In this document: positions 6,556 to 38,519 of the stretch, piece after piece
Position numbering within the stretch: position 1 is the stretch's first letter
How the letters are laid out: every line of letters starts with the position of its first letter
Assembly: GCA_965203495.1 (NCBI GenBank)
Contig: CBDBDB010000007.1
Span: 324,959-388,958, forward strand
Reading direction: 5' to 3'
DNA: 64,000 nucleotides
From: Candidatus Multivorans sp.
GTDB lineage: Bacteria > Acidobacteriota > Thermoanaerobaculia > Multivoradales > Multivoraceae
Program-made: the position numbers and the translations under genes
The notes under the pieces: model-generated
Databases searched by the model: none
Told to the model about the DNA's origin: nothing
Seen by the model: only the letters and a program-made list of their open reading frames with translations

Positions 6556-9500
6556 GAACTGGCCTTCCTGAGCGGTCCCAGCAAACGGTGGGCGAGGGCG
6601 CGGAACTGCTCGCCCTCGCTGCCGTCGCCGGAGAGGAGCTCGGCGCTCTTCTCCACGTTGCCGAATACGAGCTGGTGGGAGGCCTCCGCGCCTTCGCTGT
6701 AGCTCTGTCCTGACCACACGCGCCTGACGCTCTCGGTCCACTTGTTCTTGGCGAGCCATTCCCAGGACGTCGCGGGGAAGAAGGGCAGGGGGCGGCGTCG
6801 GCCCTCCCGCCAGGTCGACGTCCAGTGGCCGAGCAACTTCCGCGCGACGTCTGGATCCGGGCCGGCGACGACGACCTCTTCGATCTCCTTGCCGCAGCCC
6901 AGCAGGTGCGCGCTGGCCGTCTCGTTCCGGCTGCCGATGAGCGCGAGCAGTCGCAGCCAGGTCGCGATCCGGTCCTTCGGCCGCACTCTTCCGATACGCC
7001 AGAAGAGGAGTTCGTTCCTCTCCCGCTCGAACTGGTCGACGGCGCCGATCAGCCGGACGCGTTCGAGGTCGACCTCGACGCCCTCGACCGGCGCCTGCCG
7101 GTGGGCATCGAAACGCTGGAGCTCGGCATCGAGCATCGCCACCTGCGTTGCCGACTTCCGGTACTCGATGCAGCCCAGGTTCCCCGCGGGGAGCAAACCT
7201 CGGGCCGCGGCGAGACGGTGCGCCGTTTCGTCGTCCAGGGCGTCCTTGCCGCTCAGTTCGCTCTTCAGCTGCCAGACCTCGAGCGCGTTCAGGTCGAGCG
7301 GCTCGTCGTCCTCCACGTCGTCCTCGCGGGCGCCGAGCGCCATGCCGAGCCGGTTCCGCAGGAAGTCTCTGGAGGGGCTCTCGGAGAAGCGGATCAGGTC
7401 CTCCAGTTCGATTTCCGCCGCTTCGCCTTCGTCCGGGTCGGCGGGCAGTTCGCCCTGGAAGCGACGGGGCGTTTCGCCGCGCGAGCGCAGCGCCCTGGCG
7501 GCCTGGAGCATCGGCCGCGAGTAGCTGAACAGCTCCGGTTCTTCCGACGAGGCCGCGGCCCGCGCGCCGCGCTCGCTCTCGCCGTCGACCGTGAAGTACC
7601 TGCGGCTGAAGGGCTGAAGCGGATGCTCCGTTCGCCAGCGCTCGCGCGGATCCGCGACCGCGTCCGCGCGTTCGTTCGGTTCGCGCGCCGGGACGGAGAA
7701 CCGCTTCGCCAGGTAGTCCAGGAGTTCGCTGACCAGGACCGACGGCGGAATCGGCTTGTCCTCCTGCAGGTCCTTGCCGGTGCAGGTGACGACGAAGCAG
7801 TTCCGGGCGGCGAGCAGGGCCTCCAGGAAGGCGAAGCGGTCGTCTCCGCGGCGGTCCGGATCGCCCGGCCTAGGCTTCTCGCGGTCGAACAGTCCGGCCT
7901 TGAAGTCGAAGACCTCGGGCGGTTGGCGGTGCGGGAAGGCGCGATCGTTCATGCCGACGGCGCACACCGCCTTCGCCGGAAAGATCTGCCCGGAGGCGAG
8001 CGACGCGACGGCAATGCCGTCCGCCAGCCGGGGCGGCGACCGGACGGATTTCACGGCAAGGTCGTTCAGCGTCTCGCGCAGCACCGGGAACGGAATGCGG
8101 CCCTTGGCGCCGGCCTGCCGGCACTCGTCGTCGAACTCCTCGATCAGCCGGGACACCGTGCGGACTTCCCGGGCGGCCTCTGATCCGGCGTGGAGGTCGG
8201 CGTCGAAGAACCTGTCCAGGACGTCGCGGCGCAGCCGGTTCGTCCAGCCGGATGCCTCCAGTTCGACCGTCCGCCAGTCGCCGAGTTCGAACGCGAGCTC
8301 GCAGTAGCGGTGGAATCGTCCGAGAAGCTCGTAGTCAGCCGCGCCGTCGTGGAAGCCCCGGCCGTCGAGAGCGCAGGGCTTGATGCCGTCGGCCAGGACA
8401 TCGCCTTCGTGGAGCGCGTAGCCGAGCGTCAGCCGGTCGAGGCCCCGGCGCCAGTTGTGGTCGGCCGACGCGGGAACGTCGAGCTCGGTCCGGTGGTCGG
8501 CGGCCTTGCCCCAGCGCACCCGCGCGCGGGCTACGGCGCCGCGGAGCGTCGCGAGATCCGTGTCGGCGATGTCGAAGCGGCGGCGCACGGCGCCGGCGAG
8601 CAACGGCGCCAGGAGTTCGCTCGCCGTGAAGCGGGCGCCGGGAAGCGCCAGCAGGTCGAGGAAGGCGGTCAGGGCGGCGCCTTCCTTCAGCCGCCGCGCG
8701 CCGACGCTGAAGCCGATGCGGTCGGCGGCGCCGAACACGGCCTCGATCAGCGGCGCGTAGGTGTCGATGTCCGGCGTGAGCACCAGAACGTCGGCGGGCT
8801 GGATGTCCTCGTGGCGGTCGAAGACGCCAAGCAGGCGGTCGTGCAGGATCTCGACTTCGCGGGTTGGCGAATGACAGACGTGGACCTGAAGCGAGTCGTC
8901 CCGGTCGTCAGGTTCGAAGTGGTTGTCGAGAGCGTTCGGAGCCGCCTCGAAGATGTCGCGCTGCACCGCGGCCAGACAGCTGACGGCGCGCGGTGCGTCG
9001 CTTTCCCGCGGACGGTCCGCGACGACGGCGACGTTCGGTTCGGCGAAGAGCTGGCGCGGCAGGGCCCGCGCCGAACCGCTCCAGGCGTCCAGCAGTTCGT
9101 TCGTCTCCCTGGCCTCTTCGCCGCGTTCGGCAAGAGCCGCGGGTGGCTGGCCAGCCTGAACCGTGAGATCGTTCGTCTTTCCGGTCTCCCCGGTGCGTTC
9201 GGCCGGGTCGGTCCAGAAACGGCGGCTCGGGCTCAGGACGTAGAGGTGGACGTCCATCGCCGTCGCGGCGAGATGCAGCGCCTCGACGTAGGTGGGAGAC
9301 ATCTTCGCGACGTGGAAGAAGTTCACCCGTTTCTTCCTTGTCGCCGCCGCGCGTCCATCGAGCGCCTCCCGATACGTGTCGATCGCGTCGACCCAGTGGC
9401 GCGGTTCGGAGTCCGTCGCGGCGAGCTCGGCCCAGAGCCGCGCGTGCCAGCCCGCCGGCGATCCCCGCTGCCAGTCGCGGATGGTCTCCGGCCGGTACAC

Positions 9501-24059: not shown

Positions 24060-24180
24060 ATCGTAGCACGGTGTTGGGACAGCGGGGATGTCCCGTCGGT
24101 TGTTGAACTTTGGGAGTAGGGTGGCGGCTCTCCGGCCCGATGAGCGGGCCGGTCTCAGCGAAAGAAAGGAGACGCCACCC

Positions 24181-25119
24181 ATGGCCAATCATCGCAGTCG
24201 GGAAGGGAATCGGCAAGAGAGAAGGAGCACTCCGAGCAGTCCGTCGTCGGGATCGGGGCTTGGTCTGTTGGAGTCATTGCCCTCGTTGGTCAACGGTCTG
24301 TCGAGCTTTCAGGAGCTGTGCGTCGAGACAGGCCGGTCTACGTTGGCCCGGTTGATGGAGGAGGAGCGGGAGTCGCGGTGCGGCGCGAAGGGTCGTCACC
24401 AGGATGCTCGTTCGGTGTGGCGTGCGGGCAGTGCTCCGAGCCAAGTGACGCTGGGCGGGGCCCGGATCGAGATTCAGCGTCTGCGGGTACGGGGTCCGGA
24501 GGGCGAGGTGCGTCTCGAGTCGTTCGAGTGGGCGGCGTCTCGCGACGCGATGGACCGTCACACGATGGAAGCGATTGCGTCGGGCGTGTCGACGCGGAAC
24601 TACCTGCGGTCGCTGGACACGGCGGCCGCGGGTTCGGACCGTCGTTCGGCATCGCGGAGTTCGGTGTCTCGGCGCTTCAAGGCGCTGTCGGCGCGGCAGA
24701 TGGAGAAGTTCCTGTCGTCGTCGCTGGAAGACGAGGACATCCGCGTGGTGTGCGTGGACGCGAAGTACATCGGTGGCCACTGCATTCTGATCGCCTTGGG
24801 CGTTTCGTCGTCCGGTCACAAGCGGGTTCTTGGCCTTCGCGAGGGTTCGACGGAGAACACGGCGGTGGTCCGCGCTCTTCTCGCCGACCTGGTGGAGCGG
24901 GGCCTCTCGACGGCGAAGCCGTTGCTGTTCGTCATCGACGGCAGCAAGGCCCTGCGCCGCGCAATCAAGGAGGTCTTCGGCGACGCCGCGACGGTGCAGC
25001 GCTGCCAGGTCCACAAGGCCCGGAACGTCGAAGAGCATCTGCCCGAAGAGAGGCGAGCCTCGATTCGCCGGGCGCTCCGCAAGGCCTGGGACAGCAAATC
25101 CGCCAAGACGGCCTTGAGG
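24181..25119 (+). pseudogene. IS256-family transposase, 5' part of copy 1 (interrupted after ...KSAKTAL)
   Basis: The sequence matches the full-length copy at 25218-26501. The reading frame runs into the left end of the inserted IS copy 2. Confidence 0.8.
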
Positions 25120-26558
25120 GGGGATGTCCCGCCGGCTGTTGAACTTTGGGAGTAGGGTGGCGGCTCACCCGGCCCGGTGAGCGGGCCGGTTCCAGCGAAA
25201 GAAAGGAGACGCCACCCATGGCGAATCATGGCAGTCGGGAAGGGAATCGGCAAGAGAGAAGGAGCAGCTCGTCGTCGGGGTCGGGGCTTGGTCTGTTGGA
25301 GGCATCGTCCTCGTTGTTCGACGGTCTGTCGAGCTTTCAGGATCTGTGCGTTGAGACAGGCCGTTCTGCCTTGGCGCAGTTGATGGAGAAGGAGCGGGAG
25401 TTGCGGTGCGGGGCGAAGGGTCGTCACCAGGATGCTCGTTCGGTGTGGCGCGCGGGCAGCGCTCCGAGTCAGGTGACGCTGGGCGGCGCCCGGATGGAGA
25501 TTCAGCGTCTGCGGATACGGGGTCCGGAGGGCGAGGTGCGTCTCGAGTCGTTCGAGTGGGCGTCGTCTCGCGACGCGATGGACCGTCACACGATGGAAGC
25601 GATCGCGTCGGGCGTGTCGACGCGGAACTACCTGCGGTCGCTGGACACGGCGGCCGCGGGTTCGGACCGTCGTTCGGCTTCCAGGAGTTCGGTGTCTCGT
25701 CGCTTCAAGGCGCTGTCGATGCGGCAGATGGAGAAGTTCCTGTCGTCGTCGCTGGAAGACGAGGACATCCGCGTGTTGTGCGTGGACGCGAAGTACATCG
25801 GTGGCCACTGCATTCTGATCGCCTTGGGCGTTTCGTCGTCCGGTCACAAGCGGGTTCTTGGCCTTCGCGAGGGTTCGACGGAGAACACGGCGGTGGTCCG
25901 CGCTCTTCTCGCCGACCTGGTGGAGCGGGGCCTTTCGACGGCGAAGCCGTTGCTGTTCGTCATCGACGGCAGCAAGGCCCTGCGCCGCGCGATCAGGGAG
26001 GTCTTCGGCGACGCCGCGACGGTGCAGCGCTGCCAGGTCCACAAGGCCCGGAACGTCGAGGAACACCTGCCCGAAGAGAAGCGAGCCTCGATTCGCCGGG
26101 CGCTCCGCAAGGCCTGGGACAGCAAATCCGCCAAGACGGCCTTGAGGCGTCTGCGGCAGCTCGCCAGTCATCTCGAGCGGGAGCACCCCGGCGCAGCGGC
26201 CTCCCTACGGGAAGGCATGGAGGAGACCGTCACCGTGCTCGAACTCGGCCTCGCCGGAGCTCTCCAGAAGACCATGCGCAGCACCAATCCGATCGAGAGC
26301 CTCAACAGCTCCGTCGGGCGCTACACCCGCAACGTCAAGCGCTGGCGGGGCGGCGCCATGATCCAGCGCTGGGTCGCCGCAGCCCTCGTCGATGCGCAAT
26401 CACGCTTCCACCGCGTCAGAGGCTACCGAGACATGCCAGAACTCATCCGTGCTCTCGAACGACGAGCACGTCACGTTGACCACCAAACCAAGGCCGCTTA
26501 ACATTCTTCAACACACACGAGCCGCCATCCGAAGTTCAACAGAAAACGGGACAATCCC
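25120..26558 (+). mobile_element. IS256-family IS, copy 2, nested inside copy 1; 8-bp TSD CCTTGAGG
   Basis: CCTTGAGG is at 25112-25119 and at 26559-26566. Both terminal inverted repeats are present. The transposase gene is intact. Confidence 0.8.
25218..26501 (+). CDS. IS256-family (Mutator-like) transposase, intact
   Basis: The 427-aa product carries the DDE-region blocks VLCVDAKYIGGH, FVIDGSKALRRAI and QRCQVHKARNV. SD GAAAGGAGA precedes the ATG. Confidence 0.85.
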   Translation: MANHGSREGNRQERRSSSSSGSGLGLLEASSSLFDGLSSFQDLCVETGRSALAQLMEKERELRCGAKGRHQDARSVWRAGSAPSQVTLGGARMEIQRLRIRGPEGEVRLESFEWASSRDAMDRHTMEAIASGVSTRNYLRSLDTAAAGSDRRSASRSSVSRRFKALSMRQMEKFLSSSLEDEDIRVLCVDAKYIGGHCILIALGVSSSGHKRVLGLREGSTENTAVVRALLADLVERGLSTAKPLLFVIDGSKALRRAIREVFGDAATVQRCQVHKARNVEEHLPEEKRASIRRALRKAWDSKSAKTALRRLRQLASHLEREHPGAAASLREGMEETVTVLELGLAGALQKTMRSTNPIESLNSSVGRYTRNVKRWRGGAMIQRWVAAALVDAQSRFHRVRGYRDMPELIRALERRARHVDHQTKAA

Positions 26559-27184: not shown

Positions 27185-27640
27185 TCAAGGAATCCGGTCA
27201 TAGCTCTGCAAGTGGCCATCGAGCGCCCAGATGCGGACGCGGCGGCTCCTGTGCCGACTGCACTCGGTCTCCCAAGCCTTGATGATCGACAGATCGCTCA
27301 GGTCCGGGCCTCTCTTGGCGTGATCCGGAAAGTCGTCAAGCCATTCTTCGAGTTGTCGTTCGTCCGGGAACCGAATCGGCACCCAAGGGGCCTCTCCCTT
27401 CAGAGCCTCACGAATGCTGTTGCGAAACACCTCGGCATACCGTCGCCGGAGCCCGCCGCTCCGGAGATCGGCGATGTGATCGCCAGTTTCAAAGATCGCT
27501 GCCAGTGGCAGAAGAAGGCTGGCACGAGCATCAAGCAATGCGCCGAACTCCGCAAGGACCTTTTCGCGGTCCTGATTGAACGATGGAACGTCGAGCACGT
27601 TGAGCAGAACGCTCGTGTCCACGATAACGACCGCCGACAT
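27185..27640 (-). CDS. PIN-like domain protein (putative nuclease effector), partner of upstream ATPase
   Basis: The N-terminal strand VVIVDTSVLLNVLD is present. Acidic positions E51, D97/D100 and D138 (IWALDGHL) are spaced like the PIN catalytic residues. It starts 6 bp after the ATPase stop on the same strand. Confidence 0.5.
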   Translation of the reverse strand: MSAVVIVDTSVLLNVLDVPSFNQDREKVLAEFGALLDARASLLLPLAAIFETGDHIADLRSGGLRRRYAEVFRNSIREALKGEAPWVPIRFPDERQLEEWLDDFPDHAKRGPDLSDLSIIKAWETECSRHRSRRVRIWALDGHLQSYDRIP

Positions 27641-27646
27641 CGCCGA

Positions 27647-28945
27647 CTAGTCCGCCTGCGTCCTGATCTTGTTCAGCCAGGCGTGGGCGCGTCGGCGGCG
27701 TTCTTCCGGCGTCGGCCGGAGCTTCACGATTCGATCAAGAATTCCCTGCGTCAGGAGATGGCCGACGGCGCCTTGGGCGATGAGTTCGGGATAGTCCGGG
27801 AGGTCGGCAAGACGCTGGAGGCAACTGGCGCCGGTCGTCGGGTCCCGGTAGCAGAACACGACGTTCGGCACTGCGTCGTTCGGCAATGCGTCGAGCAGGG
27901 CGGGGTTGTGGCTGCTGATGAGCACTCGGAGGTTGCGCCGTTGGGCAACCGTGGAGAGTCGGTCCAGCATCAACTCCGCGCGGCTTGGGTGCACGCCGTT
28001 GTCGATCTCCTCGATCACGACGATGCTGCCCTCGGGCGCGGACAGTACCGCGGCGGCGATGCCGAGAACGCGGAGAGTTCCATCGGACAGCAAGGCTGCG
28101 TCGTACTCCGTCCGCCTCCCGCCAAAGGTCTCGGTCAGCTTGACCATGGCCTCGTTGCGCGGAGTCTCGATGAAGCCGATGTTCGTGATGTCCTGCTCCG
28201 GCAGGGCCTTGACGAAGTGGAGCAGCTCGGCCTCGGTATGGGTCTCCTGACAGAGGTTGAACAACACGCCGGAGAGATTCGTTCCGTGGCCGCTCAGCGT
28301 CCGCTCGGTCTTGAAGCTGTAGGCTCGCATGGCTGACGGTTGCGGGTCGAGGAACACGATGTTCGACAGCCAGCTCTGATACCGGGTTGTCACTTCGGGG
28401 ATCACCCGTTGCGCCAGTTTCTGGCGTTGCGCGAATGGCGCCGAACTCTGGAGCTGGAGCAGCACGGCCATCTGGTCGGTGCATGTGACCTGAGGCTTCA
28501 TGCCGCCGCGCGCGAAGTTGTTGTACGCGACGCGAATGTCTCCGCCAGACTCTTGTGAAGATACGACCTCGAAGAGCGGGACGCGTTCGGACGGACCGTC
28601 AAGTCGTTCTTCCGTGATGTGGAGATCCTCGTCGGCTCGTCGCTCGAGCGTCACGGAGTATCGATTCCATTTCGGTTCCGTCGTCATGCACGACAGCGAG
28701 AACCCCTGGCGGCCTCCGTGGCCGAGATCGTTCACCGTTCCCCGGATGGCGTGAGCGCCGTCCTGAAGCGCGTATCGAATGGAACCGAGCTTGTTGCCCT
28801 GGGCGAGCCAGGAGAGGAAACGGAGAGCCTCGACGGCGTTGCTCTTGCCGGAGGCGTTCGCTCCGACCAGAACCGTCAGCGGCCCGAGCTTCAGCGTCGC
28901 TTCCTCGTAGCTCTTGAAGTCCTTTATCGTGAAGCTGGACAGCAT
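27647..28945 (-). CDS. ABC/SMC-type AAA15/AAA21-like ATPase (defence-associated ATPase family)
   Basis: Walker A VLVGANASGKSN is present. The ABC signature-like LSDGTLRVL is present. Walker B IVVIEEIDNGVHP and the H-loop LISSHNPALL are present. SD GGGAGGAGG precedes the ATG. Confidence 0.75.
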   Translation of the reverse strand: MLSSFTIKDFKSYEEATLKLGPLTVLVGANASGKSNAVEALRFLSWLAQGNKLGSIRYALQDGAHAIRGTVNDLGHGGRQGFSLSCMTTEPKWNRYSVTLERRADEDLHITEERLDGPSERVPLFEVVSSQESGGDIRVAYNNFARGGMKPQVTCTDQMAVLLQLQSSAPFAQRQKLAQRVIPEVTTRYQSWLSNIVFLDPQPSAMRAYSFKTERTLSGHGTNLSGVLFNLCQETHTEAELLHFVKALPEQDITNIGFIETPRNEAMVKLTETFGGRRTEYDAALLSDGTLRVLGIAAAVLSAPEGSIVVIEEIDNGVHPSRAELMLDRLSTVAQRRNLRVLISSHNPALLDALPNDAVPNVVFCYRDPTTGASCLQRLADLPDYPELIAQGAVGHLLTQGILDRIVKLRPTPEERRRRAHAWLNKIRTQAD

Positions 28946-29058: not shown

Positions 29059-31950
29059 TCACACTCGGAACACCTTCATGACTTCGTCGCCCAGGTGATT
29101 GATCACCTTGACCGCGATGCGCCCGGAGACGGGCTTCGGGAAGGGGCGGGAGGTGTCGCTGTGCAGCGTGGCCCATGCGTCGGCGTCGATCTCGGCCTTC
29201 AAGGTGGTCCTGAGCGACTTGTAGGGGTCGCCGGCGCCGAGGAAGTAGGCCTGGCGGACGAAGAAGCTTTCTTCGTTGTAGTCGGTGTCCACGAACCAGC
29301 AGGCGATGCCTTCGGGTCCGTCGCTGCGGACTTCGCCGGAGGATGGGTCGAAGACGTCGACGCCCTTGATCCTGACCCGGCGCCAGTCCGGCTCGCCGTC
29401 GGGACCGGTTGCGGTCTCGATGTCGATGTCGGGCTCGCCGAAGATGACGAACAGGTTGGCGGCGTTCGTCTTCCTGAAGTCGTCGGCCATGTGCAGGTCG
29501 GCGTTCATCCGCGCCTTGAGGATGGGGACGCGGCCGAGCTTCGTGAACTCGGACACGTGGACGTCGAAGTTGAAGGCGCAGGCGATCAGGACGTCGAATC
29601 CGGCGTCGGCCGCCTCGCGCGCGGCGCTGACCAGGTCCGGCCGGGAGACGGTTCCGAACTCCGGACCGATGAAGACGCCGGCGCGCTGTTCCTTGCCCTC
29701 GCCGTCGACGTAGCGGCCCTCGGCGCAGACCAGCTCGCCGGGCCGCGGTTCCAGCGACGAAAACGCGATCCGGCCGGCCTTGCTCGCCTGCTGAACGCCG
29801 GCGGTGCGCAGGTTCTCGAGAATCACGTGGCCGAACTCGCTGCGGCACACGTCGGCGCCCCCGTCGTCACTCGCCCGCGGCTCGGCCACCAGAAGTTCGT
29901 CCCGCTCGTCCAAGGCGGCCGGGCGATGCGGCGAAACGCTCTCGACGGTAAAGGGTCCGGCGACGCGGACTTTCCGGTTGTCCTGGAAGGGCTTGTCGTG
30001 GAGGTGTTCGTAGTCGGCCTTCGCGGCGATGCAGGCGTCGATCTCGCTCTGGCGGGCGATCCGGGCCTGCCAGAAGCGCTCGTGCGCCTCGCGCGCGGCC
30101 CGGTTCCAGTCGTCTTCCGGCTCTCGGGGGACTTCCCACTCCAGGAAGCCGTTTGCGGGCGCCGGTTCGCCGGAGGGCAGGTCGACCGTGCTTCCCGCCG
30201 GCGCCTCGAAATCGATCTGCTGGCCCTTGCGTCCGCCGGCCTGGACGACGAACGGCGCGGCGTGACCCCGCAGGGCGCGGTTGAGGTCCGACAGGGCGTT
30301 CTCGACCGCCGGCTGCAGGCGCTCGTGGATCACGTCGATCTCGGCGTTGTTGGCGATGGACTTGAGCGTGACGTGGGGGACGCGCTCGACCACGAAGCCG
30401 TGCCGGATGTCGTTGTACGTGGGCGCCTCCGACGGCGCCTTGCGGGCGAGCGCGGCCTCCTTGAGCTGGCCCTCGCGGCTGTCGGCGAGCAGGTACCAGG
30501 GGTAGCGGGCGCCCATGATGCGGGCCCGGGCCAGGGCGAGCGCCACCCGGGACGTGTCGATCGTGATCCAGCGGCGGCCCCATTGCTCGGCGACGTAGGC
30601 CGTCGTGCCGGAACCGCAGGTCGGGTCGAGCACCAGGTCGCCGGGGTCCGTCGTCATGAGGATGCAGCGCTGGATTACCTTGGGGAGAGTCTGTACAACG
30701 TAGGTCTTGTTCGCCGCATAGCCGGCTGTGCCGGTGTCGTTCCACTGGTTCGTGATCCGAACCACGGGGAAGTCATCCAGGAATCGAAGATACGCAGGTG
30801 TATTCCCCTGATAGCCCAAACGTGCCGCCTTGCTCAAACGCTCTATTCCGTCGGCGGTCGTCTTCCAGTGCATTCCCGGTTTGATGGAAAATATCCTTCC
30901 CATGAGTGCAACCGAGTGGGTTTTGGCCGCAGCGCCTTGCGAGGTCAGATCAGCTGACCTCGCAAGGCGCTGCGGCCAAAATCGCGGGAAATTGCCACTC
31001 AGATTGTGTAGCTCCCGATACGACGTCGCCCCTTGTAGACCGGCCTCTTTCTTGTTCGTCAACAGCCGGTACTTCAAGGCAGAGGACTTCCCGTACCAGA
31101 GCAGATAGTCGGACACGTTAGCCAGGCGCATGGCAGCGAAGCCAGACGTCTTGGAGAACGACACTTGAGAGACAAAGTTCGCCTCTCCAAACACCTCGTC
31201 CATCAACGCCCGCACGCGGTGCACGTTCTCGTCGCCGATCTGCACGAACACGGATCCGCTCTCGGTCAGCAGGTCCCGCGCCGCGGTCAGTCGGTCGCGC
31301 AGATAGGTCAGGTAGGAGTGAATGCCGTCCCGCCAGGTGTCCCGGAAGGCCTTGACCTGCTCCGGTTCCCGGGTGACGTGGTCCGCCTTGCCGTCCTTCA
31401 CGTCCCGGCTGGTCGTGGACCACTGGAAGTTCGAGTTGAACCGGATGCCGTAGGGCGGGTCGATGTAGATGGTCTGCACCTTGCCGCGCAGGCCCTCGCG
31501 TTCGGCCAGCGACGCCATGACCTGCAGGGAATCGCCCAGCACCATGCGGTTCGACCAGTTCGCGTCGTGCCGGTAGAACTCCGTTCTGGCGTCGTCGTCC
31601 GGCAGGCCGTTGAAGTCGGCGAAGAGGTCGGGCTGGACGGCCCGGTCTCCGGCCTTCCGTTCGCGGGCCCGGCGGCTGGTCCGCTCCAGATCGTCGATCA
31701 GCACCTTGGGGTGCACCTTCTCCTGGATGAAAAGGGGCGGCGTCGGCACGACGAGGTCGGACCAGTCCTCCATGTCCTTGCCGCGCCAGATCAGCTGCGG
31801 GTCGAGGTCCGGGTTGCGCCGCTCGTACGCGACCCGGATCGGGTCCCGGTCGTACGCGTGCATCACCGGCTCGTACTCGGCGGTGGGAATGTTGCGCCGC
31901 GTCGCTTCGCGGTGGATCAGCGTCTCGACCTTCCGGGCTTTCTTCGCCAT
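29059..31950 (-). CDS. mod: Type III restriction-modification methyltransferase (Mod), N6-adenine beta-class
   Basis: Motif IV IYIDPPYG lies upstream of motif I VLDPTCGSGTTAYVA (beta-class order). A central variable region lies between them. The start is set at MAKKARKVETL. Confidence 0.85.
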   Translation of the reverse strand: MAKKARKVETLIHREATRRNIPTAEYEPVMHAYDRDPIRVAYERRNPDLDPQLIWRGKDMEDWSDLVVPTPPLFIQEKVHPKVLIDDLERTSRRARERKAGDRAVQPDLFADFNGLPDDDARTEFYRHDANWSNRMVLGDSLQVMASLAEREGLRGKVQTIYIDPPYGIRFNSNFQWSTTSRDVKDGKADHVTREPEQVKAFRDTWRDGIHSYLTYLRDRLTAARDLLTESGSVFVQIGDENVHRVRALMDEVFGEANFVSQVSFSKTSGFAAMRLANVSDYLLWYGKSSALKYRLLTNKKEAGLQGATSYRELHNLSGNFPRFWPQRLARSADLTSQGAAAKTHSVALMGRIFSIKPGMHWKTTADGIERLSKAARLGYQGNTPAYLRFLDDFPVVRITNQWNDTGTAGYAANKTYVVQTLPKVIQRCILMTTDPGDLVLDPTCGSGTTAYVAEQWGRRWITIDTSRVALALARARIMGARYPWYLLADSREGQLKEAALARKAPSEAPTYNDIRHGFVVERVPHVTLKSIANNAEIDVIHERLQPAVENALSDLNRALRGHAAPFVVQAGGRKGQQIDFEAPAGSTVDLPSGEPAPANGFLEWEVPREPEDDWNRAAREAHERFWQARIARQSEIDACIAAKADYEHLHDKPFQDNRKVRVAGPFTVESVSPHRPAALDERDELLVAEPRASDDGGADVCRSEFGHVILENLRTAGVQQASKAGRIAFSSLEPRPGELVCAEGRYVDGEGKEQRAGVFIGPEFGTVSRPDLVSAAREAADAGFDVLIACAFNFDVHVSEFTKLGRVPILKARMNADLHMADDFRKTNAANLFVIFGEPDIDIETATGPDGEPDWRRVRIKGVDVFDPSSGEVRSDGPEGIACWFVDTDYNEESFFVRQAYFLGAGDPYKSLRTTLKAEIDADAWATLHSDTSRPFPKPVSGRIAVKVINHLGDEVMKVFRV
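30922..30980. repeat. Perfect 27-bp inverted repeat with 5-nt loop (TTTGGCCGCAGCGCCTTGCGAGGTCAG-ATCAG-CTGACCTCGCAAGGCGCTGCGGCCAAA) inside mod coding sequence
   Basis: It was read directly from the sequence. It sits in a roughly 300-bp low-GC segment (30830-31130) corresponding to the Mod target-recognition region. The frame is maintained. Confidence 0.9.
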
Positions 31951-31954
31951 GTCG

Positions 31955-32335
31955 CTAGCGGTCCTCCGCGTCGGGGATGTGAGCGATGCCGAGCTCCTCG
32001 GCGAGCGCACGGAGTTTCCGGTCCGCCGTCCACAGTGTCGCGTTTCCGTCCGCCAGAACCGCGCCGAGGAGGTTGGCGTCCATGTAGCCGATGCCGCGTC
32101 CCATCCAGGAGTGTCGTTCGATCAGAGCGAGGAGGTCGTCGCCAGAGAGTGTCGCGAGTCGCGGGAAACCCCTCATTCGCTCGAGGAAGCCATCGCGCTC
32201 GGGCAGGTGGCCACATGCCAGTTCGCCGATGACCATGGCATGGGATAGCACCTCCCGGGCCTCCACGCGGTCCCGCAACTCCCGGCTGGGGGCACGCACG
32301 TTGTCAATCCAGATCGACGTGTCCACCAGGATCAT
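31955..32335 (-). CDS. vapC: VapC-type PIN-domain toxin
   Basis: The N-terminus MILVDTSIWID is classic VapC. The protein is 126 aa. The ATG overlaps the res TGA (ATGA). Confidence 0.8.
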   Translation of the reverse strand: MILVDTSIWIDNVRAPSRELRDRVEAREVLSHAMVIGELACGHLPERDGFLERMRGFPRLATLSGDDLLALIERHSWMGRGIGYMDANLLGAVLADGNATLWTADRKLRALAEELGIAHIPDAEDR

Positions 32336-35300
32336 CCCGCTTCCGCGCTCCGGCGTCGCGGAATGTACTTGGCGTCGGGCATCGAGCCGCCGATGGCGCC
32401 AAGGAACCGCGCGACCTCGCTCGCCCGCTCTTCGCTGGCGAGTTCGTCCAGGGCGGTCGCGATCCCGGCGTCTAGGTCGTGTTCCATTTCAGACGGCTCC
32501 CGCAGTTCAAGGTACGCCCAACGACCATGGCGGCCGACCGCGTTGACCGCGGGAATCCAGCAGGTTTCCATGGCTTCCGCCTTCGCCCGGGATTCTTCTC
32601 CTCGCATGCCCTTGACCTCCACCACGACGTGCAGGGGTTCCTCCTTGCCGAGGCCGTGGTCGAGGTCGACGATGAAGTCGGGGGCGTAGCGGCGGGGGGC
32701 GCCGCCGAACCGGTACGGCACGTCGAAGCCGAGGTTCCGGTTCTTCACCCAGGCCAGCACGCGCGGGTGCGCGTCGAGAACGCGGCAGAACTCGCCTTCC
32801 CACGTGCTGTCGAGAATCGCCCAGTTCAGATGGCAGCGACGGCCGGTCCGGTAGCGCTGCGTGCGCGACGTCGTGAAGTGCACGCTGCGGGTCGTGCCGA
32901 CCGGGTTCCAGGGATCGAGCAAGGCCCTGACCGGCTGCTTGGCCGACCGGCGCCGCAGTTCGGCGCGGGTGACGGCGGCCGCAATCTTCTCGCAGGCGCG
33001 GTCGGCGAGCTCCGCCATCATCAGCTGCGCCGGAACCGTGTTTCCCTTGCACGTCAGGCAGGCATCGAGCCATTCGCCGGCGATGCGCTTCAACTGGCCG
33101 AACAGGTGCAGGTCCGGATCTTCGTTCGCGTCGCGCCAGTGCTTGAACAGCAGCCGCTTCGTCAACTCGTAGAGCACGGTGGACCGGCGGACCCCGTTCA
33201 GCCGCTCGGGGCCGAGGTCGTGGCCTTCGCCGATGATGCCCTGATTGTGCGTGATCGTCGGTCCCACGAGTTCCGGCGTCAGCTCGAGCGCCGAGTCCTC
33301 CGTGAACGCGGCGGAGAGGCGGTCGTTCGGCAGATCGACGCGGTAGCCGGCCACCCGCGGGAAGCGGATCTCCGCGTCGTCCCGCTCCGGCGAGAGGGCC
33401 TGGACTTGCACCGTCTCGGCGGGCGGCTGCGGCGGCGCCGCGACGGGCCTGGCGGTGAAGTCGAAGGGCACGCCGAACACGTCCGCGTACTCGACGTCGA
33501 ACAGGCCGCCGTCGTTCAGTTCGTAGGACTGCCGGCGCAGGGAGCGGCCGATCACCTGTTCGCAGAGCAGCTGCGTCCCGAAGGCCCGCAGGCCGAGGAT
33601 GTGAGTGACATTGCTGGCGTCCCAGCCTTCGGTCAGCATGGCGACGGAGACGACGCAGCGGATGGCGCCGCCCAGCCGGCCGGCCTTGCCGACGGTGTTC
33701 ATCGCTTCGCGCAGCAGGTCCTGGTCCGACAGGTTCTCGGCTTGCCGGCGATCTCCCGTCCGTTCGACGATCTCCCGGCGGAAACGCTCGATCTCGTCCG
33801 CGGCGGCGGCGCGGAAGCTCCGGTCGAGCGCGTCGCCGGATTCGAGCTGCCGGCTGTCGATGAGCAGCGTGCGGGGTCTGGGCAGTGGCGTGCCGTCCGC
33901 GTCGAAGTTGCGGAACAGCGGCAGGCGACCGTTGTGGAAGGTCCCCGCGCCGTTCCCGGACCCGCGTGGGAAGCCCGCGATGTAATCGTGGACCAGCTTC
34001 GACGCGGCGGTGTTGTTGCACACGACGATGAAGCAGGGCGGCGTCTCGATGCCGGCCTCCTCCCACAGGGTGAACGTCTTTTCGTAGTGTCCGTAGAGAG
34101 CCTCCAAGGCCGTCTGCAGCTCGGTCGGCAGCGACATCGGGTCGGCGGCCGCGCCGCTTGCGCCGCCGCCGCGGCCCTGCTTCGGCATCTTCCCGCCGAT
34201 GCGCTCCCAGAGGTTCCGGAACATCGGCATCTCGGCGCCGGGGACGTTGTCCACCACCGGCACGCGCGGGACCTTGACGATGCCGCACTCGATCGCGTCC
34301 ATCAGGGAGAAGTCGCTGACGGTCCACGGGAAGAGCGTGCCCTCCGCGTAGCCCGAGCCGCGCAGGAAGAACGGCGTGGCCGACAGGTCGATCACCCGCT
34401 TGATTCCCAGTCTGCGCGCGGTCGCCTCCAGACCGGAGATCCACACGTGCGCCGCCTCCCGGTTGCGCTTCGCCTCGTGGCGGTCGTCGCCGGTCAGCCG
34501 CCCTTCCTCGTCTTCGCCGGCCTTCTCGCGATAGCAGTGGTGCGCCTCGTCGTTCAGGACGAGGATGCCCCTCATCGCCATCAGTTCCGGCATCGCGCGG
34601 GCCAGCATCTCGCCTTCCGTTTCGCGGACTGCGAGGTCCGGGCCGCGGCCCTGGAGCAGGGCGCGGCTCCCCTTGGCCAGCTTCATCGTCTCGCGGCGCC
34701 CGAACGCGTGGTAGTTGACGATCACGATCCTCGCCCTGTCGATGTCGCGCAGCATGTCCGGGGGCGCGAGTTCGCGGCTGGCGTAGTAGCTGTCGGGGTC
34801 GTTCGGCTGGAGCACCCGCAGGCGGTCGCGGATGGTGATGCCCGGCGCGACGACGAGAAAGCCGCGAGTGAACCGCCGGCTCGCGGGGCGGCGAACGGCG
34901 TTCACCGTCTGCCAGGCGATGAGCATGGCCATGACGGTCGTCTTGCCGGCGCCGGTCGCGAGCTTGAGCGCTAGGCGCGAGAGGCCCGGGTTCGCCTGCT
35001 CGCTGGCCGCTTCGATCCGCTCCAGGAAGCCGCGGCCGCGCTTGCCCATGGCGGGCGCGACTTCGGTCAGCCAGATGGCGGTCTCGACGGCTTCGACCTG
35101 GCAGAAGAACGGGCGGATGCCGCTGAACCGATGGTGGCGCCAGTGCTTGAGCAGACGGGCTGTTTCGGGCGTCACGCGCCACTGCGACTCCGGCAGCGCG
35201 CGCCAGGCGGCGATCGCCCGGCGCAGGCCGCCGATCAGCTCGGTCAGCTCGTACTGCTGACCGCCTGGCGTCTCGAGCGCGTCGATGTCCGCGTCCAGGG

Positions 35301-35478
35301 TGAGTCGCCGCTGCGTCTTGCGGCCGGTCTTTCTCGCCCTGGGAATCGGCGAGACGAAGGAAGCCGGGCGACGCCCGGGGGCGATTCTCTCAGTCGGCTG
35401 GCGGTTCTCGTCCAGCACCCAGTGCCGGCCCGGCAGTTCGTAGGGCGAATTGAGGATAGGGGACCGGTGGAACGTCAT
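32332..35478 (-). CDS. res: Type III restriction endonuclease Res subunit (helicase + PD-(D/E)xK) with C-terminal extension
   Basis: DEAH-box LVLNDEAHHC is present. Walker A GAGKTTVM is present. The C-terminal nuclease motif YAPDFIVDL...VVVEVKG is present. The start is set at MTFHRSPILNSPYEL, and the upstream ORF extension is judged spurious. Confidence 0.8.
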   Translation of the reverse strand: MTFHRSPILNSPYELPGRHWVLDENRQPTERIAPGRRPASFVSPIPRARKTGRKTQRRLTLDADIDALETPGGQQYELTELIGGLRRAIAAWRALPESQWRVTPETARLLKHWRHHRFSGIRPFFCQVEAVETAIWLTEVAPAMGKRGRGFLERIEAASEQANPGLSRLALKLATGAGKTTVMAMLIAWQTVNAVRRPASRRFTRGFLVVAPGITIRDRLRVLQPNDPDSYYASRELAPPDMLRDIDRARIVIVNYHAFGRRETMKLAKGSRALLQGRGPDLAVRETEGEMLARAMPELMAMRGILVLNDEAHHCYREKAGEDEEGRLTGDDRHEAKRNREAAHVWISGLEATARRLGIKRVIDLSATPFFLRGSGYAEGTLFPWTVSDFSLMDAIECGIVKVPRVPVVDNVPGAEMPMFRNLWERIGGKMPKQGRGGGASGAAADPMSLPTELQTALEALYGHYEKTFTLWEEAGIETPPCFIVVCNNTAASKLVHDYIAGFPRGSGNGAGTFHNGRLPLFRNFDADGTPLPRPRTLLIDSRQLESGDALDRSFRAAAADEIERFRREIVERTGDRRQAENLSDQDLLREAMNTVGKAGRLGGAIRCVVSVAMLTEGWDASNVTHILGLRAFGTQLLCEQVIGRSLRRQSYELNDGGLFDVEYADVFGVPFDFTARPVAAPPQPPAETVQVQALSPERDDAEIRFPRVAGYRVDLPNDRLSAAFTEDSALELTPELVGPTITHNQGIIGEGHDLGPERLNGVRRSTVLYELTKRLLFKHWRDANEDPDLHLFGQLKRIAGEWLDACLTCKGNTVPAQLMMAELADRACEKIAAAVTRAELRRRSAKQPVRALLDPWNPVGTTRSVHFTTSRTQRYRTGRRCHLNWAILDSTWEGEFCRVLDAHPRVLAWVKNRNLGFDVPYRFGGAPRRYAPDFIVDLDHGLGKEEPLHVVVEVKGMRGEESRAKAEAMETCWIPAVNAVGRHGRWAYLELREPSEMEHDLDAGIATALDELASEERASEVARFLGAIGGSMPDAKYIPRRRSAEAG
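32335..32487 (-). other. In-frame 51-codon RHH/antitoxin-like tail of res (MEHDLDAGIATALDELASEERASEVARFLGAI...), possible internally initiated VapB-like antitoxin
   Basis: No separate antitoxin ORF lies upstream of vapC. The tail has an RHH-like pattern. An internal ATG is preceded by GGGAG. Confidence 0.3.
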
Positions 35479-35559
35479 GGCGTCTCGAGCAGAGGCCCGG
35501 AGCTTATTGGACGGCGGTTTCTGGTGCTGCCGGGGGGTGCCGGCGGTGAGAGCGCCGCA

Positions 35560-35960
35560 TCCCTCGTCTCGGGTGTGCGTGGCGTGGTGGCGATCGGCGA
35601 GTTCGCGTCTCGCCTGACGCAGAGGCAGTTGTCCGCGGTGAGCGCGTTCTTCAGTCCGAGTCGGAAGCGGTACGTCGCGCCGTCTCGGACGTCGATCCAC
35701 CGGATACTGACGGCGCTTGATCCAGAGGTTGTCGACCGGGCGGTTCGGGGTTTCGCCGCCCAGTCGCGGCGCCCCCGCGGCGCGTTGGCAGTTGACCGCA
35801 AGTCGGTCGACGGCGCGCACTGGCGCCATCTCCGCGGACCCGGTTCAAAAGCCGATCTCAGGGCCGCGCACGGGACGCCCCGCGAAGCGGTGGGCAAGCT
35901 CAGCCCGCGAGCGCCCCCGGGCGCGAACCTATACGAATTTCTGAAGCTTCCAACGGTTTA
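35560..35960 (+). pseudogene. Possible ISAs1-family transposase N-terminal fragment
   Basis: The translation ...SPSRKRYVAPSRTSIHRILTAL...ALAVDRKSVDGAHW loosely resembles the ISAs1 N-terminal region (AIDGKTLRGS block). The frame continues from the off-frame ORF 35131-35961. Confidence 0.25.
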
Positions 35961-36028
35961 GCAGCCCGTGGCAAAAGTGGATTCGGCCCGGAGTGCCACT
36001 GCTGCTTCGAGGCTGAGTCTGGGCAGCG

Positions 36029-37072
36029 CTACGCGACGCAAAGTTGGAAGCCGAGGCGATGTGCGCGCCAAGAGGCGCAGATCGACTGCATCAGCCCGTC
36101 GAATCGGGCTGTGAACGCTGCAAGCAAGCCAGTCTGGGCGCCCAGAGTTGCCGTGACACGGCCCTGCAGCGATCGTGGCGTGCCGACTCCCGCGAGGCTC
36201 CTCATCAGGAGACCGAGATTGAAGCCGCAGGAATGAATGTAAAGGCGCTTGAGCGCGTTGTCGCGGCCGCGCAGATGCAAGCGCCGCATGCCGCCGGTCT
36301 CGAACTGGTGAGCGAAGGGACGTTCGACGCGCTCGCCGCGCCGGCGCTGCAGCCGCTTGCCCCGATTGCCGCGGACCCGCCGACGGTTCGCGTACACGAT
36401 GGCTTGCAAGTCCTTCTTGCCTGTCCAACGACGACGACCACGGTCCGGCTCCGCGATGTAGCTGCGAAGCTCCAACTCGTCGATGGAGGCGAGAACGTCG
36501 TTGCTGTGGTAGCCCTTGTCCGCAATCACTTCCTCGATCACCGACGAATCGCCGACTGCCGACTCCACCTGCTCGAACGTCTCCTCCAACGTCTCGTGGA
36601 CCGACTCCGTGTCTCCCTTGGCGCCGCCATGCAGCGTCACACCCAGAATGGCCCCGCTCTCCAGGTCCACCGCCTGCTCCGCCTTGTACGCGAGGTGCGT
36701 GCGGCCATCCTTCATCTTCGTGACCTCGGCATCCGGATCGTGAGGATTCTCCCACTCCTCGTTCGACAGCTTCTTCTTCCGCTTGCGGTCGAAACGAGCC
36801 AACTCCGCACGAGTCAGCGTCGCCAAGCCCGAAGCCTCTGCCAAGCCACGCACGAACTCCTCGTAGCCAGAACCCGTATCCCGACGAACGATGCTGCGCA
36901 GCGCAGCGTTCGCCTCCAGCGTCGTCGCGTCCACGCCCACTGTCTTCCCCGATACCAGACCCGACTCCGCCAAGCGCTCAAGAACCCAGCTGAACACCTT
37001 GCCGTGAGTCTCCAGATCGATCAGACGACGAGTGCGAGAAATCGTCGAATGATCCGGCGAACCCTCCGTCAC
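36029..37072 (-). pseudogene. IS5/IS1182-family DDE transposase, C-terminal 347 aa (N-terminus severed by IS256)
   Basis: Hallmark blocks DKGYHSNDV and ERPFAHQFETGGMRRLHLRGRDNALKRLYIHSCGFNLGLLMRSL are present. The frame begins exactly at the IS256 junction. Confidence 0.75.
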
Positions 37073-38519
37073 GGGATTGTCCCGTTTTCTGTTGAACTTC
37101 GGATGGCGGCTCGTGTGTGTTGATGAATGTTAAGCGGCCTTGGTTTGGTGGTCAACGTGCCCTGCTCGTCGTTCGAGGGCGCGGATGAGTTTGGGCATGT
37201 CTCGGTAGCCTCTGACGCGGTGGAAGCGTGATTGAGCATCGATGAGAGCGGCAGCGACCCAGCGCTGGATCATGGAGCCGCCCCGCCAGCGCTTGACGTT
37301 GCGGGTGTAGCGCCCGACGGAGCTGTTGAGGCTCTCGATCGGATTGGTGCTGCGCATGGTCTTCTGGAGAGCTCCGGCGAGGCCGAGTTCGAGCACGGTG
37401 ACGGTCTCCTCCATGCCTTCCCGGAGGGAGGCCGCTGCGCCGGGGTGCTCCCGCTCCAGATGACTGGCGATCTGCCGCAGACGCCTCAAGGCCGTCTTGG
37501 CGGATTTGCTGTCCCAGGCCTTGCGGAGCGCCCGGCGAATCGAGGCTCGCCTCTCTTCGGGCAGATGCTCTTCGACGTTCCGGGCCTTGTGGACCTGGCA
37601 GCGCTGCACCGTCGCGGCGTCGCCGAAGACCTCCTTGATTGCGCGGCGCAGGGCCTTGCTGCCGTCGATGACGAACAGCAACGGCTTCGCCGTCGAGAGG
37701 CCCCGCTCCACCAGGTCGGCGAGAAGAGCGCGGACCACCGCCGTGTTCTCCGTCGAACCCTCGCGAAGGCCAAGAACCCGCTTGTGACCGGACGACGAAA
37801 CGCCCAAGGCGATCAGAATGCAGTGGCCACCGATGTACTTCGCGTCCACGCACACCACGCGGATGTCCTCGTCTTCCAGCGACGACGACAGGAACTTCTC
37901 CATCTGCCGCGCCGACAGCGCCTTGAAGCGCCGAGACACCGAACTCCGCGATGCCGAACGACGGTCCGAACCCGCGGCCGCCGTGTCCAGCGACCGCAGG
38001 TAGTTCCGCGTCGACACGCCCGACGCAATCGCTTCCATCGTGTGACGGTCCATCGCGTCGCGAGACGCCGCCCACTCGAACGACTCGAGACGCACCTCGC
38101 CCTCCGGACCCCGTACCCGCAGACGCTGAATCTCGATCCGGGCCCCGCCCAGCGTCACTTGGCTCGGAGCACTGCCCGCACGCCACACCGAACGAGCATC
38201 CTGGTGACGACCCTTCGCGCCGCACCGCGACTCCCGCTCCTCCTCCATCAACCGGGCCAACGTAGACCGGCCTGTCTCGACGCACAGCTCCTGAAAGCTC
38301 GACAGACCGTTGACCAACGAGGGCAATGACTCCAACAGACCAAGCCCCGATCCCGACGACGGACTGCTCGGAGTGCTCCTTCTCTCTTGCCGATTCCCTT
38401 CCCGACTGCGATGATTGGCCATGGGTGGCGTCTCCTTTCTTTCGCTGAGACCGGCCCGCTCATCGGGCCGGAGAGCCGCCACCCTACTCCCAAAGTTCAA
38501 CAACCGACGGGACATCCCC
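37073..38519 (-). mobile_element. IS256-family IS, copy 3 (inverted relative to copies 1/2); 9-bp TSD CTCCGTCAC
   Basis: CTCCGTCAC is at 37064-37072 and at 38520-38528. The terminal inverted repeats are GGGATTGTCCC... and ...GGGACATCCCC. Confidence 0.8.
37130..38422 (-). CDS. IS256-family transposase, intact (copy 3)
   Basis: Its N-terminal 300 aa are identical to the copy 1 fragments. Its C-terminus matches the copy 1 3' part. Confidence 0.85.
   Translation of the reverse strand: MANHRSREGNRQERRSTPSSPSSGSGLGLLESLPSLVNGLSSFQELCVETGRSTLARLMEEERESRCGAKGRHQDARSVWRAGSAPSQVTLGGARIEIQRLRVRGPEGEVRLESFEWAASRDAMDRHTMEAIASGVSTRNYLRSLDTAAAGSDRRSASRSSVSRRFKALSARQMEKFLSSSLEDEDIRVVCVDAKYIGGHCILIALGVSSSGHKRVLGLREGSTENTAVVRALLADLVERGLSTAKPLLFVIDGSKALRRAIKEVFGDAATVQRCQVHKARNVEEHLPEERRASIRRALRKAWDSKSAKTALRRLRQIASHLEREHPGAAASLREGMEETVTVLELGLAGALQKTMRSTNPIESLNSSVGRYTRNVKRWRGGSMIQRWVAAALIDAQSRFHRVRGYRDMPKLIRALERRAGHVDHQTKAA

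Follow-up and report, generated by a model that had tools for sequence, protein, structure and literature searches.

In the 64,000-nucleotide stretch of contig CBDBDB010000007.1 from Candidatus Multivorans sp. that we analysed (the window), a restriction-modification (R-M) operon carries a gene for a PIN-domain toxin, vapC, between the restriction gene res and the methyltransferase gene mod. We conclude with high confidence that the C-terminal tail of Res derives from a VapB antitoxin and is genuinely fused to the restriction enzyme. As far as sequence comparison can tell, this tail is the neutralising, toxin-binding half of VapB, minus the ribbon strand and helix 1 of the complete antitoxin. 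Homology and the analogy to solved VapBC complexes make it probable that the tail neutralises VapC by binding to it.

An earlier note, drawn up from the letters of the window, had proposed that an antitoxin-like tail is fused in frame to the 3′ end of res and that vapC has no separate vapB gene. Both proposals were borne out; others made in the same note had to be narrowed or dropped.

The C-terminal tail of Res and its relation to VapB

The last 51 codons of res (positions 32335–32487, minus strand) read MEHDLDAGIATALDELASEERASEVARFLGAIGGSMPDAKYIPRRRSAEAG. Res extends 44 amino acids (aa) beyond the end of the family profile NF046055, which falls at residue 1121 of the 1165-residue open reading frame (ORF); the earlier note had put this excess, correctly, at about 40 aa. 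Most Res homologues end some 10–15 aa past the profile end. The comparison of C-termini across homologues placed the tail in VapC-linked loci and left most other relatives without it: about 70 of the 80 best reference-genome relatives of Res, as well as most of 120 protein matches, are tail-less and stop approximately 10–15 residues after a conserved amphipathic helix, DFEAKVEAEFNKMIE.

Profile comparisons tied the tail to VapB. When 21 Res tails were aligned with 70 VapB sequences, hhalign gave a probability of 97.8% and an E-value of 1.1e-12, with tail columns 20–60 matched to VapB positions 28–64. A hidden Markov model built from the 70 canonical VapB sequences was also run against 953 six-frame ORFs of the window, and the Res tail was its sole inclusion-level match (E 0.0014, VapB positions 39–64; the runner-up reached 0.25). 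With this profile we found no separate vapB gene upstream of vapC and no other VapB-like ORF in the six frames of the window.

In a tblastn search of plasmids the matches of the tail were weak (E 0.4–9), yet nearly all of those that are annotated are 'type II toxin-antitoxin system VapB family antitoxin' genes adjoining VapC genes. For example, the VapB of Rhizobium pRapFH23c ends in VRVESGKRLIALGGTMPDAKAAPRRRSVAAK and the window tail in SEERASEVARFLGAIGGSMPDAKYIPRRRSAEAG, each up to the stop codon; another such pairing of C-termini is GGTMPDAKAAPRRRSVAAK with GGSMPDAKYIPRRRSAEAG. The C-terminal motif of the subfamily, ...RESARRLAxLGGSEPxLxxIPRRR, is matched by the window tail (EERASEVARFLGAIGGSMPDAKYIPRRRS) and by the tail of the related locus L096 (ARESARRLALLGGSEPQIEPIPRR). 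The pattern GGSxP...IPRR(R/K) is nearly invariant across the tails and is present in canonical VapB as well.

It is worth stressing that more direct searches did not reveal this relation. In Pfam, PF09957 had no match at E<=10 on six Res tails, whereas the canonical VapB consensus matches it at E 1.6e-19; the tail is missed because the PF09957 model spans VapB positions 1–46 only. The 51-aa tail had no match in a word-indexed protein database. An exhaustive phmmer search of 1.84 billion representatives returned only Res C-terminal fragments (P0122, P0123 and P0125) and low-complexity matches and no free VapB, because a single-sequence search is too weak for a homologous segment of approximately 30 aa. 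The link between the tail and VapB emerged only via the relatives of the toxin and their partner genes.

The earlier note had assigned all 51 codons to an antitoxin. The sequence is present as it described, but comparison with homologues indicates that the first ~8–15 codons are part of the terminal helix of the Res nuclease domain and that only the last ~35–40 aa are antitoxin-derived. Tail-less homologues have an equivalent of the initial MEHDLDAG segment (...M/I-x-x-D-F-E-A-K...), and NF046055 covers the protein up to residue 1121.

The description of the tail as a ribbon-helix-helix (RHH) antitoxin did not hold. Only VapB positions from about 28 or 39 to 65 are present, that is, the end of helix 2 and the toxin-binding segment, while neither the N-terminal strand (MRTTLNLDD) nor helix 1 occurs in the tail or in any frame of the region. 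The AlphaFold2 (AF2) model of the last 332 Res residues (mean predicted local distance difference test score, pLDDT, 70.6) has a single long helix through residue 312 and no strand. The end of the model, GGSMPDAKYIPRRRSAEAG (residues 313–332), is without secondary structure, and pLDDT is below 50 for residues 316–332. Antitoxin segments that fold upon their partner typically show disorder of this kind.

A structural precedent comes from a report on VapBC11 (PMC6265470). There, residues ~1–40 of VapB11 form the RHH domain, whereas residues 41–63 wind around VapC11 from a lateral position as far as its active site, with a conserved Gly-x-Pro hinge. C-terminal peptides of VapB11 alone inhibit the toxin, according to the same source.

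We also observed one Res fragment (P0127) that continues for 41 aa beyond the normal end of the tail and carries the motif a second time in degenerate form (...IPRRRSVEDAPRRRTGG...DIEDIPGRRGG...). This continuation could be a read-through or a duplication.

VapC and its free-standing relatives

The window VapC matches the Pfam PIN domain with an E-value of 2.5e-4 and 22.1 bits, slightly below the gathering score of 23.6. Two PIN alignments show no variation at D5, E38 or D86, and D105 is kept in all or at least 90% of the sequences. The AF2 model of VapC has a pLDDT of 94.2, and the top Foldseek matches are two toxins of M. tuberculosis, VapC15 (4CHG, TM-score 0.74) and VapC11 (6A7V, TM-score 0.76), whose partners VapB15 and VapB11 are antitoxins of the PF09957 type. 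A phmmer search of VapC against PDB sequences yielded no match, and profile and fold searches were needed.

The window VapC is 41–51% identical to proteins that are annotated as VapC or paired with VapB. A PIN relative at 51% identity (P0085) belongs to a canonical pair, in which it lies behind a 63-aa gene with a match to PF09957 (VapB_antitoxin). Almost all of 80 metagenomic PIN relatives (35–50% identity) have an upstream ORF of ~65 aa with a 4-nt overlap, and the same is true of nearly all of the closest free-standing relatives (35–51% identity). The PIN relatives provided the 70 distinct VapB sequences, whose consensus is MRTTLNLDDELLAKAQRLTGVKEKTALVREALKALIERESARRLARLGGSEPQLKAIPRRRSAAA. 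In a neighbour-joining tree of 88 PIN proteins, built without bootstrap, the 11 Res-linked ones group together in a clade free of canonical members; L093 and L100 are only marginally nearer to the Res-linked set.

Conservation and co-inheritance of the tail and the toxin

Several phyla share the in-frame fusion, which occurs at more than 13 distinct loci. In independent assemblies, a Res of 1045–1105 aa, a PIN protein of 121–126 aa and Mod follow one another with the 4-nt overlap, and the PIN proteins are 53–83% identical. These assemblies comprise L001–L015 and L184 as well as L022, L024, L093 and L100, which come from Vicinamibacteraceae, Pseudomonadales and Longimicrobiales genomes. All VapC-linked Res proteins end in ...GG(S/T)xP(D/N)xxx(I/V)PRR(R/K)S....

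Nine of the 80 best genome Res loci carry the tail. An intact PIN gene lies behind four of them, a PIN remnant behind four more and neither behind L027, and this VapC was found behind none of the tail-less loci of the set. The supposition that the tail goes with the adjacent vapC is thus supported at 8 of the 9 tails.

The earlier note had named a tail without an adjacent vapC as the observation that would count against its idea. Six loci with the tail but without an intact vapC were found (L033, L042, L059, L096, L027 and L183), yet four of them keep the start of vapC. L033, L042, L059 and L096 are decay products, since their first 4–31 vapC codons remain: 31 in L059, 12 in L033, 8 in L042 and 4 in L096. 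L027 has no remnant, and L183, which lies outside the 80-locus set, is a degraded Res fragment without PIN or mod. L184, also outside the set, is intact. The toxin is lost while the tail is kept and never the reverse, which is the asymmetry predicted by a toxin-antitoxin pair.

The tail is under purifying selection: its ratio of nonsynonymous to synonymous substitution rates (dN/dS) is ~0.03–0.5, like that of the adjacent nuclease domain. Over nine loci, the identity of the tail rises with that of the PIN protein (r 0.87, Mantel p 0.0002) but shows no correlation with identity in the part of Res immediately upstream (r 0.03, p 0.37). The tail and the toxin are therefore inherited or co-adapting as one module distinct from the body of Res. 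In a neighbour-joining Res tree (without branch support), tail-bearing proteins fall into at least four groups, and the L096 tail comes very close to the canonical VapB consensus. It is likely that the tail was fused or exchanged more than once.

Organization of the locus

The res gene matches NF046055 (970 positions) over its full length with 1275.9 bits, against a cutoff of 800, at residues 122–1121 of the listed ORF (positions 32332–35829, 1165 aa, with the stop codon at 32332–32334). The Pfam domains ResIII and RE_endonuc also match. Because the NF046055 match spans residues 122–1121 and relatives are 1045 aa long, the true start of res is taken to be M121 of the listed ORF (position 35469). 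The preceding 120 codons (35470–35829, minus strand, ATG at 35829) are outside the family profile and missing from the 1045-aa relatives, and from this comparison they appear to lie outside the res gene. An exact-sequence look-up found no record of the 1045-aa Res in the protein collection; the source record may therefore use another start. Exact look-ups likewise returned no record of the window VapC (P0001) or of P0228.

The mod product matches Pfam N6_N4_Mtase (E 3.6e-32) and the PADLOC profile MTase_III PDLC03632 (1243.7 bits), and an identical 963-aa product is on record. The full-length NF046055 match and the adjacent large N6/N4 methyltransferase fit a type III-like R-M system. The order is res-vapC-mod, with vapC between the other two, and these three genes form one operon; together with an ATPase gene and a small gene, five genes are co-directional on the minus strand. 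A sigma-70-type scan of positions 31800–36100 found no promoter-like site and no minus-strand terminator-like site, which is weak evidence for a single transcript. The features are collected in Table 1.

Table 1. Features of the locus in the window; rows that open with a locus handle refer to related loci with vapC remnants and give positions in those loci
Feature	Positions	Strand	Description
res	32332–35469	−	1045-aa BPTD_3080-family restriction endonuclease (ResIII helicase and PD-(D/E)xK nuclease), fused tail included
VapB-derived tail of Res	32335–32463	−	IATALDELASEERASEVARFLGAIGGSMPDAKYIPRRRSAEAG; robust core 32341–32418, EVARFLGAIGGSMPDAKYIPRRRSAE
Predicted disordered end of the tail	32335–32394	−	IGGSMPDAKYIPRRRSAEAG; Gly-x-Pro hinge-like motif and nearly invariant IPRR(R/K); presumed, by comparison with VapB11 residues 41–63, to extend to the VapC active site
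First 8 of the 51 codons, MEHDLDAG	32464–32487	−	Opens the last helix of the nuclease domain of Res; not antitoxin-derived
GGGAG	32497–32501	−	9 nt upstream of the internal ATG (32485–32487); Arg-Glu codons of Res; not conserved
Overlap of res stop and vapC start	32332–32335	−	ATGA; 4-nt overlap as in nearly all canonical vapB-vapC pairs
vapC	31955–32335	−	126-aa PIN-domain toxin with D5, E38, D86 and D105
mod	29059–31950	−	963-aa N6/N4 DNA methyltransferase; starts 4 nt past the vapC stop
PDC-M07A	27647–28945	−	ABC/AAA_21 ATPase; PADLOC candidate defence system PDC-M07, E 9e-188
PDC-M07B	27185–27640	−	151-aa PIN-like protein; PADLOC E 1.7e-54; no Pfam or NCBIfam match
DDE_Tnp_1 transposase	36029–37072	−	One flank of the island
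Mutator-family transposase	37130–38515	−	
Mutator-family transposase	25146–26501	+	
Mutator-family transposase	24088–25155	+	Shorter; only profile positions 24–290 of 379
L059	7008–7121		31 vapC codons joined to the middle part of mod
L033	7014–7706		After 12 vapC codons, an Unstab_antitox (PF09720) gene and a ParE/RelE-like ORF
L042	7011–7133		8 vapC codons within a 37-aa ORF
L096	7014–7801		After 4 vapC codons, a complete pair of DUF6364-like antitoxin and 140-aa PIN

The PDC-M07 two-gene pair lies directly downstream of mod, and in L006 mod is trailed by a 432-aa ATPase with the same Pfam domains. Transposase genes flank the res-vapC-mod-PDC-M07 island on both sides.

Proposed reading: a restriction subunit with a tethered antitoxin

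We regard Res, with moderate confidence, as a restriction subunit with a tethered antitoxin, whose loss would release VapC. In this scheme, a vapBC cassette with a VapB of the PF09957 type and a VapC like VapC15 and VapC11 would have been inserted at the res-mod junction. The 5′ half of vapB, which encodes the DNA-binding, dimerising RHH part, would then have been lost, and the 3′ toxin-binding half joined in frame to the last helix of Res. The helix of the tail and its disordered GGSxP...IPRRR end would wrap VapC and cover its acidic catalytic site, in the way known from the C-termini of VapB11 and further VapB proteins.

Through translational coupling, each VapC would be synthesised directly after its own Res and kept inactive on it. 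Since the DNA-binding half is absent, there would be no autoregulation of the VapB type, and expression would follow the R-M operon. If Res were lost, truncated, degraded or blocked, VapC would be freed and its ribonuclease (RNase) activity would arrest growth. We infer that the biological role may be that of a guard or of an addiction module. The locus would be stabilised through addiction to full-length res, and VapC could serve as a second-line abortive defence when a phage neutralises restriction, as PrrC does for EcoprrI.

Several points weigh against this proposal. The mode of contact between the tail and VapC is drawn by analogy, this C-terminal subtype of VapB being one without a solved structure. 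The segment retained past the G-x-P motif is short (14 aa). The simple addiction argument is weakened because, under translational coupling, premature stops in res may also lower VapC. L027 has the tail and no VapC remnant. In addition, the correlation between tail and PIN could stem from joint inheritance by recombination and not from physical co-adaptation.

The tail might instead serve for docking, so that a VapB-derived peptide permanently anchors VapC on Res. VapC would then be an additional nuclease subunit of the restriction complex, acting for example on phage RNA or R-loops, and no latent toxin. The stable, conserved association with translational coupling, the loss of the autoregulatory half of VapB and the occurrence of other nuclease-like genes (NYN, HepT) in the same slot of relatives agree with such an arrangement. 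We nevertheless judge it unlikely. The tail retains the IPRRR end, the most conserved part of the toxin-binding region in this VapB family, and in solved VapBC complexes (PMC6265470) the C-terminal end of the antitoxin sits at the active site; binding is therefore expected to block catalysis. The asymmetric loss described above, with the toxin gone and the tail kept, is also what a toxin-antitoxin relation would lead one to expect.

Very unlikely, in our view, is a nested in-frame antitoxin, that is, a peptide of ~51 aa that is translated from the internal ATG with the aid of GGGAG and neutralises VapC in place of Res. Both elements noticed earlier exist and are suitably spaced (9 nt), methionine occupies this position in most VapC-linked relatives, and a gene caller reported a 51-aa product from this start in one metagenome (P0123). 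In-frame intragenic antitoxins also have a precedent in RpnS of Rpn (Zhong et al. 2023, as cited in PMC12707154). A separate antitoxin product from these elements was not borne out, however. Tail-less Res proteins have M, I or L at the same position, so that the methionine is a structural residue of the Res helix. L093 and L100 have CTT (Leu) there and an intact VapC, and a Shine–Dalgarno-like motif precedes the internal Met in only 3 of 12 VapC-linked loci. The fragments P0122, P0123 and P0125 look like Res proteins cut by contig ends, and a weak test found no promoter-like site inside res. We rejected a conserved nested ORF, as there is no conserved internal start.

That the tail is a functionless scar of cassette insertion, with VapC inactive or controlled otherwise (for instance, by an antitoxin encoded elsewhere), is highly improbable. 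Pfam and NCBIfam do not recognise the tail and the module has decayed at several loci, as one would expect of a vestige, but the dN/dS of the tail is well below 1 and similar to that of the nuclease domain. Moreover, GGSxP...IPRR(R/K) is nearly invariant among Res proteins that are only ~52–57% identical, the catalytic residues of VapC are conserved, and the window contains no other VapB-like ORF.

Finally, the chance that an assembly error or frameshift masks a normal, separate vapB is practically negligible and was rejected: although the window apparently comes from a metagenome-type assembly and metagenome-assembled genomes can carry indels, the same in-frame fusion recurs, with unchanged length, in more than 13 independent assemblies that stem from various samples and phyla. 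Neither of the region's other two reading frames resembles VapB, and no frame contains the N-terminal half of VapB.

The res-mod junction in related loci

In the 80 genome loci L022–L101, mod was located in 65, and 42 of these have extra DNA at the res-mod junction, taken as a minimum of 220 nt ahead of the NIPTAE motif that is conserved in Mod; mod is directly next in the remaining 23. Among the slots examined, the contents included a Bro-N gene (L035), a NYN gene (L076), a gene for an unknown 96-aa protein (L071) and other toxin-antitoxin pairs.

Some of these inserts resemble the arrangement in the window. In L025, L023, P0128 and P0129, Res is fused C-terminally to a complete MNT nucleotidyltransferase (PF01909, E 2.3e-17), which acts as the antitoxin in HEPN-MNT systems. 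In L025 (6001–8246), the Res-MNT fusion is followed by a 123-aa HepT/HEPN toxin (PF01934, E 1.3e-28, with RNxxxH) that overlaps the Res stop, and then by mod, while the contig of L023 stops at the fusion. Res-MNT together with HepT is a parallel fusion of an antitoxin to Res with a different toxin family. Res-MNT nests inside the main VapB-tail clade of the Res tree, which suggests cassette swapping.

In L182 (1171–4091, P0182), Res ends in a different, antitoxin-like tail, ...APLEGIDLTRPREFPRDIEF, and its stop overlaps the start of a gene for a 138-aa PIN protein (PF01850), followed by mod. This PIN protein has no significant similarity to the window VapC. A tblastn search of plasmids with the P0182 tail gave weak matches (E 2–8), one of which adjoins a VapC.

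L045 (6001–7992) and L061 (6001–8022) have a Res extension of ~130 aa, a gene of 202–204 aa with an ATGA overlap, and then mod. Neither the extension nor the gene product has a Pfam match, and they may represent another pair of a Res-fused partner and an effector.

The Res tail of L044 (~6900–7008), ...RVMGELQGSIFTGERKFTRDEMNER, is similar to the C-terminal end of the 74-aa L096 antitoxin (...GKVRIGRKPTREEMNAR), and this resemblance suggests a further tail of the antitoxin type. Downstream of the L044 Res no matching PIN was found; a Gp49/RelE-like ORF and a helix-turn-helix ORF are located there.

That similar layouts recur, with MNT-HepT and with a second VapBC family, suggests that the design is general and no accident. 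We put forward, tentatively and as a possibility only, that the res-mod junction of BPTD_3080-family R-M systems is a plug-in slot for unrelated toxins (two VapC families, HepT and perhaps others), each with its antitoxin, or just the toxin-binding peptide, joined to the Res C-terminus. Res would then act as a sensor through its own integrity, and its loss, truncation, proteolysis or inhibition by a phage would free the RNase. If this is true, the slot would be a general, sequence-readable version of the 'guarded restriction enzyme' principle of PrrC, and the freed RNase would abort the infection or kill cells that lose the system.

Comparison with known systems and implications

The locus shares with canonical VapBC systems (VapBC11, 6A7V; VapBC15, 4CHG) a PIN RNase of the same structural subgroup (TM-score 0.74–0.76), an antitoxin-coding sequence directly upstream of the toxin gene with a 4-nt overlap, the G-x-P hinge and a basic C-terminal end. 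It differs in that the antitoxin is the C-terminus of a 1045-aa Res and not a free protein of ~65 aa. As the RHH strand and helix 1 are missing, no autoregulation by operator binding would be possible, and the abundance and stability of the antitoxin would be those of Res.

PrrC of the type Ic system EcoprrI is a parallel in terms of organization, as in both cases the gene of a toxic RNase lies inside an R-M operon and the RNase is presumably silenced by contact with the restriction enzyme. This likeness suggests a second-line abortive defence in our locus, activated when restriction is neutralised. According to PMC12707154 and PMC3710099, PrrC combines an ABC-ATPase with a HEPN anticodon nuclease, is masked through undefined contacts with the entire EcoprrI complex and is activated by a phage anti-restriction factor. 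In the locus described here, by contrast, the toxin is a 126-aa VapC of the PIN type, and the putative masking element is recognisable in the sequence as a fused antitoxin peptide.

Extra genes at the res-mod junction, of toxin or defence type where examined, recall the 'embedded' genes of multi-gene defence systems (Payne et al. 2024, bioRxiv 10.1101/2024.01.29.577857) and the HEPN families and MNT-HEPN pairs clustered with R-M operons (Anantharaman et al. 2013, PMC3710099). Those studies cover neighbourhood and whole-domain fusions; in the texts searched they do not report an antitoxin, or just its toxin-binding peptide, on the C-terminus of Res with a coupled toxin gene. As in RpnS (Zhong et al. 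2023), the antitoxin sequence is a C-terminal, in-frame part of a larger nuclease gene. In Rpn, however, a small protein from an internal start inhibits its own full-length parent, whereas here there is no conserved internal start and the target is a separate downstream toxin.

In the full texts searched, which include few subscription journals, we found neither a VapB toxin-binding peptide nor an MNT antitoxin described as fused to the Res C-terminus in a locus where the toxin gene lies between res and mod. R-M loci with embedded toxins (PrrC, HEPN families, MNT-HEPN) are known; what appears to be new here is the antitoxin peptide fused to Res, although a prior description is possible.

RNase toxins in R-M loci have long been proposed to be masked by restriction proteins and to act as a back-up defence. 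Outside PrrC, we know of little on the physical basis of such masking. Here the putative masking element can be read from the sequence, as a peptide of ~35 aa at the C-terminus of Res that is homologous to the toxin-binding end of VapB, and the masking idea is therefore directly testable. The tail indicates that an antitoxin can shrink to a neutralising peptide grafted onto an unrelated large enzyme, which bears on how defence modules combine. For the annotation of toxin-antitoxin systems, it means that 'orphan' VapC genes may not be orphans.

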